In this document: in pieces, positions 7,118 through 31,958 of the stretch | Layout: each line of letters starts with the position of its first letter | Position numbering within the stretch: position 1 is the stretch's first letter | Origin: Candidatus Aenigmatarchaeota archaeon | Lineage (GTDB): Archaea > Aenigmatarchaeota > Aenigmatarchaeia > CG10238-14 > SCSR01 | Direction of reading: 5' to 3' | Assembly: GCA_038998335.1 (NCBI GenBank) | Contig: JAVZHQ010000001.1 | Location: 384,001-448,000, forward strand | DNA: 64,000 nt | Notes under the pieces: model-generated | What the model was told of the DNA's origin: nothing | The model's database searches: none | The model's input: only the letters and a program-made list of their open reading frames with translations | Made by a program: the position numbers and the translations under genes

Positions 7118-7214
7118 GCGCCAGTAATCTAACCTGGTAGGATTAACTATACTAATACCAGCTTCCCAAATCTGGAATAAGCTGGGTGTCCGGGTTCAAA
7201 TCCCGGCTGGCGCA
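7118..7214 (+). tRNA. tRNA-Gly(CCC) with two short introns (~7144-7156 and 7169-7179)
   Basis: Acceptor GCGCCAG/CTGGCGC, T arm CCGGG-TTCAAAT-CCCGG, anticodon stem CCAGC/GCTGG; removing 13 + 11 nt gives a 73-nt tRNA. Confidence 0.88.
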
Positions 7215-21023: not shown

Positions 21024-21132
21024 GCTGGGATAGTTCAGCGGTTAGAACGCGGCGCTCATAAGCTTTATGAGCTTTGAAAAAATGATGAAAGATGAAACGC
21101 CGAAGTCCCGGGTTCAAATCCCGGTCCCAGCA
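21024..21132 (+). tRNA. tRNA-Met(CAT), elongator type, with 36-nt anticodon-loop intron
   Basis: Acceptor GCTGGGA/TCCCAGC, anticodon stem CGGCG/CGCCG, CTCATAA loop after removing 36 nt (21061-21096, or 21062-21097 by BHB geometry). Confidence 0.9.
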
Positions 21133-23646: not shown

Positions 23647-25193
<1,547 letters not shown>

Positions 25194-28576: not shown

Positions 28577-30618
28577 AGAAGATGAAACTACCATAGGATA
28601 AGCTGGTCAAGAGGTCCTGGCAACAGTAGCCCACTTGGTGGATGGCTCGGCTTGGTTAGCCGAAGAAGGCCGTGCCAAGCTGCGATAAGCCTGGGTTATC
28701 CGCATGGAGGAGCTGACCCCAGGATTGCCGAATGGGATTCCTAGCCCGTTAAGGGCTATTTCGGAAGAAAAGGGAACGCGCCGAAGTGAAGCATCTTAGT
28801 AGGCGCAGGAAAAGAAATCAAACGAGATTCGGTGAGTAGGGGCGACCGAAAGCCGAACAGGACAAACCGAACTTTCTTTCGAAGAGGAAGAAAGGATGTG
28901 GAGTTACAGGACTTGGGCCTTTCCTAGCTTGCTAACCTGAAGTGAGCTGGAAAGCTCCACCATAGAGGGTGATAGTCCCGTAGGGGAAGGCAAGAAGGAA
29001 AATGCCAAGTCTCCTGAGTACCATTCCTTGGATATGGAGTGGGAATTTGGGTGGCATTAACATCCAATCCTAAATACTAACCAAGTCCGATAGCGGACTA
29101 GTATCGTGAGAGAAAGCTGAAAAGTACCGCGAAAGCGGGGTGAAAAGAGCCTGAAACCAAGTTGGGCATAGTCAGCTAGGGCATGAAAGGTGCTACTCCG
29201 AAGGAAATTCTCGCAAGAGAAGAGTACGAGGAGTAGCTTACAGTGTCCTAGCATCCGTTCTGAAAAACGGGGCAGGGAGTTTGCTCGAGTAGTGAGGTTA
29301 AGGGGTTTAAACCTCGAAGCCAAAGCGAAAGCGACAAGCCCGTAGTCTCGCAAGAGACGTGGGGCGGGGTGTGAAAGCGCCTGAAATTACTCGAGCAAGA
29401 CCCGAAGCCGGTCGATCTAATCCTGGGCAGGATGAAGTTCCTCGAAAGAGGAATGGAGGTCCGAACCGGTGCTGAGACCCAATCGCTCGGTTGACCCAGG
29501 ATTAGGGGTGAAAAGCCAATCGAGACCGGTGATAGCTGGTTCCTCCCGAAATGAGCGTCAGCTCAGCCTGGTTGGAGGTAAGCAGTAGGGTAAAGAGACT
29601 GATTGGACGGTCAAGGTGCGAAAGCATCAGCCGTCCTGTCAAACTCTGAATCTACTGCTGCCTGAGAAGACCGGAGTGAGGGTACTGGGTTAAGCTCGGT
29701 ACCCAAAAGGGGAACAACCCAACCTGGGGTTAAGATCCCTAAATGCCGGCTAAACGAAGAAGGGAGTCCAAATCCTTAGACAGCGGGGCTGTAGGCTTAG
29801 AAGCAGCCATCAGTTAAAAAGTGCGTAACAGCTTACCCGCCGAGGGTTTGGGCCCTGAAAATGGAAGGGACTAAGCCGGCTGTCGATACCCCAGACCTGC
29901 GAAAGCAGGGGGTAGGGAGGCGTTCTGCATGGGTAGAAGCTTGTTCGTGAGAACAAGTGGACCGTGCAGAATTGAAGATCCTGCCATGAGTAGCAGCATA
30001 GCTGGGTGAAAATCCCAGCCGCCTGAACCCTCAGGGTTTGCCAGCAATGTTCGTCAGCTGGCAGTTAGTCGATCCTAAGGGCGCTCTTAACCGAAGCGCT
30101 CAAAAGGGAAATCGGTTAATATTCCGATACCATGGAGGTACGTGCGGCAACGCAAGCTAGCTTTCCGACGTTTCGGGATAGGCCGACGCAAGTTAACTGC
30201 CGAAGCCTGCAGAGTCTCGTAACGAGGAGAAGCAGGTGAAAGCAGGAATAGCTCCGCGTATGCGGAGTTCGGCCGATTCCTGGAACCCGTGAAAAGGGAA
30301 GCTAGAAGGATCCTCCATGATCGTACCAAGAACCGACACAGGTAGGGTCGCTGAGAAGGCGAAGGCGTGTTGGGAGAACCCAATCCAGGGAAATCGGCAA
30401 ATTGGCCCCGTATCTTCGGTAGAAGGGGTGCCTGTTCTCTCGAAAGGGAGAACAGGTCGCAGTGACAAGGGGGAAGCGACTGTTTAACAAAAACACAGGA
30501 GACTGCTAGTCCGAAAGGATTTGTACAGTCTCTGAGGTCTGCCCAGTGCCGGTGTGTGAAACCCGGTTCCAACCGGGAGAAGCCCCGGCAAACGGCGGCG
30601 GTAACTCTGACCGTCGTA

Positions 30619-30664
30619 ACTCAGGGCGGTCATCTGATTTGATGATACGCCGCCTGGGCGACAT
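30619..30664 (+). ncRNA. 46-nt BHB intron in 23S (E. coli 1927/1928) with D'/C' motif and cis guide
   Basis: GTCG-TA|A-CTCAGG...CCTGGG-CGAC-AT|A; CTGA-T-TTGATGA inside. Confidence 0.9.
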
Positions 30665-30792
30665 AAGTAGCGTAATCCCTTGCCGTTTAATTGACGGCCC
30701 GTTCAACGGCTTAACGACTTCCCCACTGTCCTGGGTTGGGACCCAGCGAAAATGCTGTTCTGGTGAATAGGCCAGAGACCTCCGGTGGGAAA

Positions 30793-30823
<31 letters not shown>

Positions 30824-30976
30824 GCGTTGCTGTAAGGTTGAAATTGCATAGAGTAGCTGGGACTCGCTATTAGGCGCAGGCTTCGGCCGAGGCTGAGAGG
30901 AAAGTGTAACACCAGCCCTTTTCAACCTTACGGCTTACCCGTAAGGGGACAGCGTCAGATGGGCAGTTCGGCTGGG

Positions 30977-31060
30977 AGTTTAGGAGCTAGAATGAAGAGT
31001 CCCTTAAGTTATGAAAAAATGATTAAGGGCATACGGTCTGAACAGCTCCTAAACCAGCAA
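30977..31060 (+). ncRNA. 84-nt BHB intron in the 23S P-loop (2252/2253) containing a complete box C/D sRNA
   Basis: GCTG-GG|A-GTTTAGGAGCT...AGCTCCTAAAC-CAGC-AA|G; splicing restores GGCTGGGGCGG. Confidence 0.93.
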
Positions 31061-31115
31061 GCGGTACGCCCTTGGTAAGAGATCAAGGGCGCCCAAAGCT
31101 CAGCTCATCCGGGTC

Positions 31116-31212
31116 ATGTCAGAAGTTGAAGCTATGATTACACTGCTCCAGAATGATTTAAAGATGAGTATGGAGGTAGCTTATGAGCTTTCATCAACTT
31201 CTGACACCCGAA
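31116..31212 (+). ncRNA. 97-nt BHB intron in 23S (about 2306/2307) containing a complete box C/D sRNA
   Basis: CGGG-TC|A-TGTCAGAAGTTGA...TCAACTTCTGACA-CCCG-AA|A; splicing restores CGGGTCAGAAATCC. Confidence 0.92.
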
Positions 31213-31384
31213 AGAAATCCGGAGTAGAGTGTAAGCGCAAAAGCTGGGTTGATTGGATCCCGCAAAGCGAGGGATCCAAGGGCGAAAGCCTGGGCTAGCG
31301 ATACATCGGTTCGCCTTAATGGCGGCCGGTGGTATCAGAAAAGCTACCTCGGGGATAATGGGCCCGTGGCCGGTGAAAGCCCAC

Positions 31385-31427
31385 AGCTCAGGGGTTTTCA
31401 TCCCACTCGATAGCGACGAGCGGGTAA
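31385..31427 (+). ncRNA. 43-nt BHB intron in 23S (about 2477/2478)
   Basis: GCCC-AC|A-GCTC...GAGC-GGGT-AA|A; splicing restores AGCCCACATTGACCC. Confidence 0.88.
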
Positions 31428-31526
31428 ATTGACCCGGCGCGTTGGTGCGTCGCTGTCGGCTCCCCCCCTCCTGGCCGTGCAGTAGCGGCCAAGGGTACAG
31501 GTGCCCACTGGTTAAAGGGGGACGTT

Positions 31527-31560
<34 letters not shown>

Positions 31561-31958
31561 GCTATCTACCGGAGGTGCTGGCTGTCTGACCGGAAGGATG
31601 GGTGAGTACGAAAGGAACACCCATCCGTGGCCTCTGGTCTACCGGTTGTTCATCGCACAGCCGGGCAGCTAAGCCATAGCGGATAAGTCCTGAAGGCATC
31701 TAAGGACGAAACCGCCCGGGAAAATAGGCAGCCAATTGCTCTGCTATTCCGCAAGGAACGGTAGAGCAACGAGGGCTCTCCTAGACGAGGAGGTTGATAG
31801 GAAGGGGGTGTACGCGCCAAGCTTTCGAGCGAGGCGTTCAGCCCGCCTTTCCTAATCGCCCGAGGTTGCCAGGACTTGATAAGCAGCTTATCCTATGGTA
31901 GTTTCAAAAGTTTTTTTCTAAAATAAAAAAGTTAAACTTTTTTTTCTTAATTTAATTT

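Follow-up and report, generated by a model that had tools for sequence, protein, structure and literature searches.

A box C/D small RNA inside an archaeal 23S rRNA intron is predicted to guide methylation of its own host rRNA

What is a 97-nt insert doing in the loop of helix 84 of an archaeal 23S rRNA gene, and does it ever reach the mature rRNA? The insert in question lies within a 64,000-nt stretch of Candidatus Aenigmatarchaeota DNA (contig JAVZHQ010000001.1 of assembly GCA_038998335.1, positions 384,001 to 448,000; hereafter, the window), which is itself part of a 1.0-Mb genome of 33% G+C in 9 contigs. Rfam models delimited an archaeal 16S rRNA at 23647-25193 and an archaeal 23S rRNA at 28614-31875 of the window. 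An earlier account of this locus, made from the letters alone (the sequence-only reading), had taken the insert for an intron encoding a box C/D small RNA (sRNA) with one assignable target in the 23S rRNA and one guide that might be an orphan. Here we report that the insert is removed from 23S rRNA, and that it very probably represents an intron of the bulge-helix-bulge (BHB) type encoding a dual-guide C/D sRNA whose ribonucleoprotein (RNP) is predicted to methylate the host 23S rRNA at the equivalents of Escherichia coli U2438 and G2251. The coordinates of the features are collected in Table 1.

In the alignment to the Rfam archaeal large-subunit (LSU) model, the 23S rRNA gene contained three insertions in domain V, of 86, 101 and 45 nt, which follow the approximate positions 30976, 31117 and 31383, respectively. 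The second of these falls in the hairpin loop of helix 84, where the sequence-only reading had placed its intron. The sequence around it forms a canonical hBHBh' motif, with a 4-bp helix (31110-13 with 31207-10) between two 3-nt bulges on opposite strands; the outer helix has 2 bp only, and the 13-bp stem that was said to enclose the sRNA was found on the inner side, 31117-31129 pairing with 31194-31206. The predicted fold of the intron region beat those of all 200 shuffled sequences (z = -3.5). Cleavage at BHB motifs usually occurs past the second nucleotide of each bulge, a rule that was re-derived from the geometry of the 37/38 tRNA intron. Because this rule sets the cuts, the intron comprises 31116-31212 (97 nt), exactly the unit delimited by the earlier reading and one that is also borne out by RNA contigs. 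Once spliced, the helix-84 loop is predicted to read GGGUC joined to AGAAAUCC, and two relatives without the intron (G033 and G028) have the loop GGGUCAGAAAUCC, exactly the one predicted. In a first sample, for which 30900-31500 was compared by BLAST with 40 relatives, the helix-84 insert was present in 16 and absent in 7 of the genomes with a readable helix 84. Splicing would restore a conserved rRNA sequence, and the intron is patchily distributed among relatives. An alternative register of the motif, GGGU/ACCC, with cuts between 31116 and 31117 and between 31211 and 31212, was rejected, since it gives a loop 2 nt longer than that of the intron-less relatives; the CGGG/CCCG register fits both their loop and the RNA junction.

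The motif is maintained by covariation. Among 44 introns from the order (see below), each of the four central BHB pairs was canonical in 41-44 cases, with CG, GC, AU and UA all represented, and pairs 1-12 of the intron stem were canonical in 36-42 cases, with up to six pair types; in two of the misfits, the 3' border was badly extrapolated. The intron occupied the identical rRNA position in every intron-bearing genome.

Evidence for removal came from contigs of two metatranscriptome runs of a single study (X11 and X16), which were aligned to 30850-31500 together with contigs of two DNA runs (X1 and X2). The DNA contigs covered the whole of this region, and X1 contigs with zero differences spanned 30850-31117 and 31088-31246, bridging both intron borders. 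In both RNA runs, contig depth was zero over 30982-31047 and 31136-31201, with the exons in between reaching thousands; over 31400-21 it was 54 in X11 and 0 in X16, i.e., next to none. RNA contigs that ended at 31116 went on with GAAAUCCGGAGU (2 in X11, 2 in X16), and those beginning at 31213 were preceded by ...CUCAUCCGGGUC (3 in X11, 1 in X16). Since these loose ends show the continuation of the respective other exon, they define a junction of C31115 with A31213, where the BHB geometry predicts it; the junction was read from the loose ends because its flanking sides were too short for it to be listed as a joint. For the other two insertions, joints from 30976 to 31061 (skipping 84 nt) and from 31384 to 31428 (skipping 43 nt) were shared by the two RNA runs and absent from the two DNA runs. 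The helix-84 junction sequence fits the exons of intron-bearing genomes and matched none of 7 intron-less helix-84 sequences. Taken together, the data show that the helix-84 intron is removed from the 23S rRNA.

These results bear directly on the notion that the insert is retained in mature 23S rRNA, as an expansion segment whose kink-turn (k-turn) binds L7Ae. Archaeal 23S rRNAs do contain k-turns, and the hairpin loop that holds the insert is at the surface. Nevertheless, RNA depth was zero over the insert, an exon-exon junction was present, DNA contigs ran straight through and the borders form a canonical, covarying BHB motif, so that retention is scarcely credible.

Within the intron, all boxes and both 12-nt guides of the C/D sRNA proposed earlier were recovered. 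The spacers between boxes C and D' and between C' and D measure exactly 12 nt each, the spacing of archaeal C/D sRNAs. Directly under the C/D motif lies a 3-bp stem (AGC/GCU), which after a 4-nt bulge continues into the 13-bp intron stem. With conserved UGA/GA cores, a covarying inner pair and a covarying terminal stem, the elements of a k-turn are in place.

The D guide forms 10 contiguous Watson-Crick pairs out of 10 with 31341-31350, the sole such match in the 16S and 23S rRNAs. The target residue was taken as that opposite guide position 5 (the N+5 rule), and E. coli numbering was obtained by alignment to rrlH (NC_000913.3). The predicted target is U31345, the counterpart of E. coli U2438, 13 nt before A2451; both the residue and its approximate E. 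coli position had been given correctly by the sequence-only reading.

For the D' guide, the same reading had offered only imperfect candidates and suggested an orphan guide or a target outside the window. A different picture emerged once both introns were removed in silico, i.e., the helix-84 intron and an 84-nt intron that interrupts the P-loop (helix 80) upstream. Positions 2-11 of the D' guide then pair with a spliced P-loop 12-mer (30971-30976 joined to 31061-31066) through 8 Watson-Crick and 2 G-U pairs, which was the best D' site in the 16S and 23S rRNAs (score 18). This target is absent from the unspliced gene because the P-loop intron (30977-31060) splits it, which also explains why it had been missed. 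Position 5 of the guide stands opposite G30975, equivalent to E. coli G2251, and the duplex spans the P-loop intron's exon junction between G2252 and G2253. Complementarity of about 9 bp or more, with the target residue at position 5, was found for both guides. The nucleotide G2251 is one that we take to be 2'-O-methylated in bacteria, by RlmB, as well as in eukaryotes. C/D sRNAs have been predicted to methylate its equivalent in three other archaea, according to passages of Dennis et al. 2015 (PMC4644070).

The candidates considered before fared less well. In the ungapped scan, 31218-31229 scored 9 and 29284-29294 (29283-29294 in that scan) scored 14, against 18 for the P-loop. A genome-wide search that included the tRNAs returned nothing convincing beyond weak, chance-level matches in tRNA-His and tRNA-Lys. 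A 12-mer match with one G-U pair at C1:334932 lies outside the ARAGORN-listed tRNAs and the rRNA genes, and a site in the 16S rRNA at 24259 involves 2 G-U pairs and a mismatch; both are at chance level. As to a candidate on the helix-84 side, relatives with a different helix-84 stem (UCUCGAG type, e.g., G013) show no matching change in the guide. The candidates in the unspliced window and genome were all rejected as chance-level matches, given that the P-loop scores best once spliced and alone shows covariation between guide and target. The compensatory changes in relatives, described below, also argue that the D' guide is no orphan.

Single-genome matches of the two guides only modestly beat those of shuffled guides, and the case for more than chance therefore rests on the relatives. 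We built a covariance model (R1) from 16 sRNA cores (alignment A1), searched it in 118 genomes of the order and re-aligned the matches with their flanks (alignment A2); the exon flanks of helix 84 in the window then served as BLAST queries to classify the genomic context of each copy. The sRNA of the helix-84 intron itself matched the model with E = 1.5e-18 and is the source genome's only copy of the family. In total, R1 sRNAs were found in 78 of the 118 genomes, almost always singly, giving 80 full-length copies. Forty-four copies (43 genomes) were intronic, between helix-84 exons, 35 (34 genomes) were free-standing and 1 (G069) was ambiguous; these counts supersede those of a regular-expression test of the flanks (40 intronic, 31 free, 10 half matches). 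No genome among the 78 had both an intronic and a free-standing copy. Intronic copies occur in families f1, f2, f5 and f6, and free-standing copies in f1, f4, f5 and f7. Of the 7 genomes whose helix 84 has no intron, six possess a free-standing copy, either on a different contig or at a great distance; in the seventh, G032, the R1 search found no copy. The first BLAST of relatives had yielded two sRNA-core matches outside rRNA genes, both of them free-standing genes with their own terminal stems. The free-standing copy of G023, a genome whose helix 84 lacks the intron, is preceded by a TTTAAATA element about 24 nt upstream.

Across the 80 copies, the k-turn inner pair (C6 with D1) was Watson-Crick in 71 (UA 47, AU 15, GC 5, CG 4), and the corresponding C'6-D'1 pair in 65 (UA 31, AU 22, GC 10, CG 2). 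In the terminal stem, 84.9% of cells were paired, as opposed to 54.9% in shuffled alignments, and the covariation score was 0.80 compared with 0.25 for shuffles; none of 500 shuffles scored as high and slid controls stayed at or below 0.24, although alignment A2, on which these values rest, was fitted to the model and so favours the structure. Guide positions 1 and 12 took all four bases, and positions 2-10/11 were constrained. Positions 6 and 7 of the D' guide were only ever U or C, as expected from their placement opposite the two guanosines G2252 and G2253.

The fit of each guide to the target in its own genome was counted by eye from a table. Positions 2-10 of the D' guide were fully paired in 28 of 43 cases, with one mismatch in 6, a misfit in 8 that all belong to genus g6 and 1 unclear case (G025), in which a 660-nt insert occupies a slightly different P-loop position. 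Positions 2-10 of the D guide were fully paired in 29 of 39 cases; a mismatch at position 8 accounted for 8 of the others, a mismatch at position 4 for one and a mis-parsed row for the last.

Importantly for the assignment of targets, changes in the rRNA were matched by changes in the guides. U at the C2254 equivalent occurs in four genomes (G014, G067, G083 and G103), all of which have A in place of G at D' position 8; among non-g6 genomes with C at that site, only G029 has this A. C at the U2257 equivalent goes along with G in place of A at D' position 11 in G038, G112, G114 and G117, and four others are uncompensated. On the D side, a G-to-A change in the target of G007 is met by C-to-U at guide position 3, and a C-to-U change in the target of G083 by G-to-A at guide position 4. 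The members of genus g6 (G010 and G073-G079; loci L019, L103, L104, L106-L108, L110 and L111) keep the D guide and have the D' guide replaced by a conserved AACCUUUGAUU type.

We also considered that the C/D-like motifs might be a decaying guide RNA trapped in an ordinary intron that has no function. Its non-consensus boxes, the D' guide of g6 without complementarity to the P-loop and the single mismatches in several lineages would be in keeping with decay. A relic would hardly be expected, however, to stand as the intronic copy without a free-standing one in 43 genomes while intron-less genomes keep the free-standing gene, nor to show compensatory changes between guide and target and an inner k-turn pair that is Watson-Crick in 71 of 80 copies. 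We therefore regard decay as very improbable.

Several observations do weigh against a methylation guide in this intron. Its boxes depart from the textbook consensus (C AUGAUUA instead of RUGAUGA, D AUGA instead of CUGA), which arises because a U-A pair takes the place of the usual G-C at the inner pair. No Rfam family reached its threshold, the best being sR35, with 17.7 bits where the gathering score is 60; weaker sub-threshold matches were also to C/D families, and since no match reaches threshold the sRNA represents a family outside Rfam and not a member of a named one. In this genome alone, shuffled guides equalled the best D match in 13 of 200 trials and reached the best D' match in 32 of 200, and the D' duplex includes 2 G-U pairs. 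We know of no organism with methylation at the U2438 equivalent. Among the relatives, one clade of 8 genomes with the target CCCC accounts for the position-8 mismatch in the D duplex, G112 for that at position 4, an A-C mismatch affects the D' duplex of G029, and in the 8 introns of genus g6 the D' guide no longer fits the P-loop. As to the RNA data, both runs come from one study that offers no DNA run to match them, and the window differs from some junction contigs at 7 of 56 letters, so that part of the junction evidence stems from relatives whose DNA was not seen. Finally, RNA contigs of X11 and X16 did not cover the excised intron; we weigh this as neutral, as ordinary RNA-seq contigs usually lose small RNAs.

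The proteins that such a guide RNA would need are encoded in the genome. Genes for fibrillarin (PF01269, 282 bits) and Nop5 (PF01798, 230 bits) are adjacent, and L7Ae (PF01248, 109 bits) completes the set of C/D proteins. The nearest public matches of the fibrillarin locus were hot-spring metagenome-assembled genomes labelled Candidatus Aenigmatarchaeota, with identity of up to 92%; similarly, hot-spring metagenomes made up all ten listed DNA runs that hold at least 0.48 of the sampled words of the stretch. The splicing endonuclease EndA (PF01974, 95 bits) is encoded as well, as is RtcB (PF01139, 547 bits), which lies outside the window (G000:C1:120751-122073) and whose match contains two TAA codons in frame. 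The gene could be interrupted or split, or the codons could stem from an intein-like insert or a faulty assembly; this is of consequence since RtcB is presumed to ligate the exons.

On this basis, the following course of events is envisaged. EndA would cut within both 3-nt bulges, and RtcB would join the exons and probably circularise the intron. The intron stem, the C/D k-turn and the C'/D' motif would then recruit L7Ae, Nop5 and fibrillarin, and the resulting RNP would 2'-O-methylate U31345 (U2438) by way of the D guide and G30975 (G2251, in the P-loop) by way of the D' guide, both near the peptidyl-transferase centre. Transcription as part of the rRNA operon would supply one guide per 23S molecule without a separate promoter. 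The guide could act in cis, inside the precursor, or in trans, after excision. Since the D' duplex spans its exon junction, the P-loop intron would have to be spliced before G30975 could be methylated.

Alternatively, the intron RNP, or the bare RNA, might mainly serve folding or aid splicing by holding the P-loop together with the strand that leads into the peptidyl-transferase ring during assembly, with methylation absent or secondary. The two targets, both in domain V, are no more than about 190 nt apart and lie on either side of the intron, and the D' duplex connects the exons next to the neighbouring intron. On the other hand, the genome keeps fibrillarin, Nop5 and L7Ae, the exact 12-nt spacing puts guide position 5 at the site of methyl transfer, and the D' target is the equivalent of G2251, for which, in the passages of PMC4644070 cited above, C/D-guided methylation was predicted in three other archaea. 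A purely or mainly chaperoning function is accordingly improbable in our judgement, though the two activities are not exclusive and could coexist.

A wider interpretation goes beyond this one intron, and we put it forward tentatively, as something possible that we think rather unlikely to hold in full. In this group of ultrasmall archaea, it would have rRNA introns carry and express guides that modify the same rRNA, make the introns depend on one another, impose an order or checkpoint on ribosome maturation, and let guide genes switch between the intronic and the free-standing state, probably via the excised, possibly circular, RNA. Under this interpretation, the strict either/or distribution (43 genomes with an intronic copy, 34 with a free-standing copy, none with both, and always the same intron site) would imply that guide genes move from intron to free gene and back. 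The P-loop intron may contribute to such a network in that it would itself supply a guide for the 16S rRNA.

The two other introns of the 23S rRNA gene have features of their own. The P-loop motif consists of a GCUG/CAGC helix with GGA and AAG bulges, from which the BHB rule yields the 84-nt intron; its splice product, GGCUGGG joined to GCGGUAC, equals the uninterrupted P-loop of relatives. The C/D sRNA in this intron has box C AUGAAGA at 30992 and box D CUGA at 31038, and both of its guides match the 16S and not the 23S rRNA. Its D' guide matches 24571-24581 with 11 Watson-Crick pairs (predicted target 24575), a result that shuffles reach in 3 of 200 trials, and its D guide matches 24863-24872 with 10 (predicted target 24866), which shuffles reach in 9 of 200. 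P-loop inserts of 83-86 nt are found in G001, G015, G095 and G097. The P-loop insert of G025 (L006, G025:C11) is about 660 nt long and lies one or two bases from the site of the 84-nt intron; it is long enough for a protein gene such as that of a homing endonuclease. The third intron is a 43-nt mini-intron at 31385-31427, between the equivalents of E. coli 2477 and 2478, in which no C/D boxes were seen. Introns or insertions may not be confined to the 23S rRNA, in that the 16S match (window 23647-25193) extends over 1547 nt compared with 1478 model positions, so that a short insertion or intron may be present in the 16S gene, too. Across the whole genome, ARAGORN called about 20 of 46 tRNA genes with introns (in the window, 7118-7214 and 21024-21132), several of the introns being at non-canonical positions; among the calls are a tRNA-Trp whose intron measures 35 nt and, as a doubtful case, a tRNA-Leu(CAG) with an 800-nt intron (C1:653838-654731).

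Table 1. Positions in the window of the helix-84 intron, its C/D sRNA and guide targets, and the neighbouring P-loop intron
Feature	Position	Strand	Evidence
BHB intron, 97 nt, interrupting the helix-84 loop of 23S rRNA between E. coli 2306 and 2307	31116..31212	+	Rfam LSU insertion, intron-less relatives, RNA junction
Central BHB helix, 4 bp, 5' (exon) strand CGGG, pairs with 31207-31210	31110..31113	+	covariation in 44 introns
5' 3-nt bulge UCA, predicted cut C31115/A31116	31114..31116	+	sequence geometry; loose ends of RNA contigs
13-bp intron stem (h'), 5' arm, pairs with 31194-31206	31117..31129	+	predicted fold; covariation
Box C AUGAUUA	31134..31140	+	sequence; position 6 covaries with D-box position 1
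D' guide, 12 nt, CACUGCUCCAGA; pairs with spliced P-loop, predicted target G30975	31141..31152	+	pairing scan, covariation
Box D' AUGA	31153..31156	+	sequence, conservation
Box C' AUGAGUA	31164..31170	+	sequence, conservation
D guide, 12 nt, UGGAGGUAGCUU; pairs with 31341-31350, predicted target U31345	31171..31182	+	pairing scan, covariation
Box D AUGA	31183..31186	+	sequence, conservation
13-bp intron stem, 3' arm	31194..31206	+	predicted fold; covariation
Central BHB helix, 3' (intron) strand CCCG	31207..31210	+	covariation
3' 3-nt bulge AAA, predicted cut A31212/A31213	31211..31213	+	sequence, RNA contigs, relatives
D-guide target in 23S; U31345 = E. coli U2438	31341..31350	+	10/10 pairing; rrlH alignment; covariation
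D' target, 5' half (P-loop, helix 80); G30975 = E. coli G2251	30971..30976	+	in-silico spliced scan; alignment; covariation
D' target, 3' half, joined to 30976 only once the P-loop intron is spliced	31061..31066	+	spliced scan; RNA joint 30976 to 31061
P-loop BHB intron, 84 nt, between E. coli G2252 and G2253; contains a C/D sRNA of its own	30977..31060	+	Rfam insertion, BHB rule, RNA joint

Among known systems, the pre-tRNA-Trp intron of Euryarchaeota (Haloferax volcanii; sR50 of Pyrococcus) is likewise a BHB intron cut by the tRNA splicing endonuclease that acts as a C/D guide, with both guides addressing its host RNA; a precedent of the same class is the tRNA-Met intron of Nanoarchaeum equitans, which is C/D-like (passages of PMC7994747 and PMC3491384). 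Unlike in these tRNA introns, the host here is 23S rRNA, the targets lie 130-240 nt away instead of in an adjacent stem, one target is made by the splicing of a second intron, and a free-standing gene of the same guide exists in sister lineages. The sRNAs of Dennis et al. 2015 resemble the helix-84 sRNA, to judge from their description in part of that paper, in being dual guides with 12-nt spacers that follow the N+5 rule and address a P-loop guanosine; they are independent genes, in contrast to the intronic sRNA described here (PMC4644070). Eukaryotic intron-encoded C/D snoRNAs offer a further parallel, since their guides also derive from an intron of a ribosome-linked host gene, so that guide and ribosome synthesis are coupled (passages of PMC7994747). 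They reside, however, in spliceosomal introns of mRNA or non-coding hosts and are freed by debranching and exonucleases, whereas here the host is an rRNA and the enzyme is an endonuclease of the tRNA type. To our knowledge, the archaeal rRNA introns described so far are either empty mini-introns or carriers of homing endonucleases. The BHB introns in 16S and 23S rRNAs of Thermoproteales and Desulfurococcales share with ours the hBHBh' motif, central rRNA sites and a patchy presence (PMC4496867 and PMC6125680).

In its passages on introns, a 2021 review gives tRNA introns and sites downstream of tRNAs as the contexts of archaeal C/D genes, and the term 'rRNA intron' is absent from its text (PMC7994747). 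In a survey of Pyrobaculum, rRNA introns were removed before target prediction, and the main text does not describe guides inside introns (PMC6009581). Our search of the open-access literature, with subscription papers and supplements outside its scope, yielded no account of an archaeal rRNA intron that contains a guide RNA. Guides in tRNA introns are known; an archaeal intron-encoded guide with rRNA as both host and target is an arrangement that we could not find reported.

Intron-borne guide RNAs are a hallmark of eukaryotes, and in archaea they have hitherto been known to us only from a few tRNA introns. The arrangement described here is conserved across several families of a DPANN order and alternates cleanly with a free-standing gene, which makes it a concrete system for studying the mobility of guide genes. 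It would give rRNA introns a role besides the carriage of homing endonucleases, and would show how tiny genomes can express guides without a promoter and in step with the rRNA. It also makes the order of splicing and modification in archaeal ribosome assembly testable. For the prediction of archaeal guide targets, it implies that spliced rRNA must be used, as real targets would otherwise be scored as orphans.

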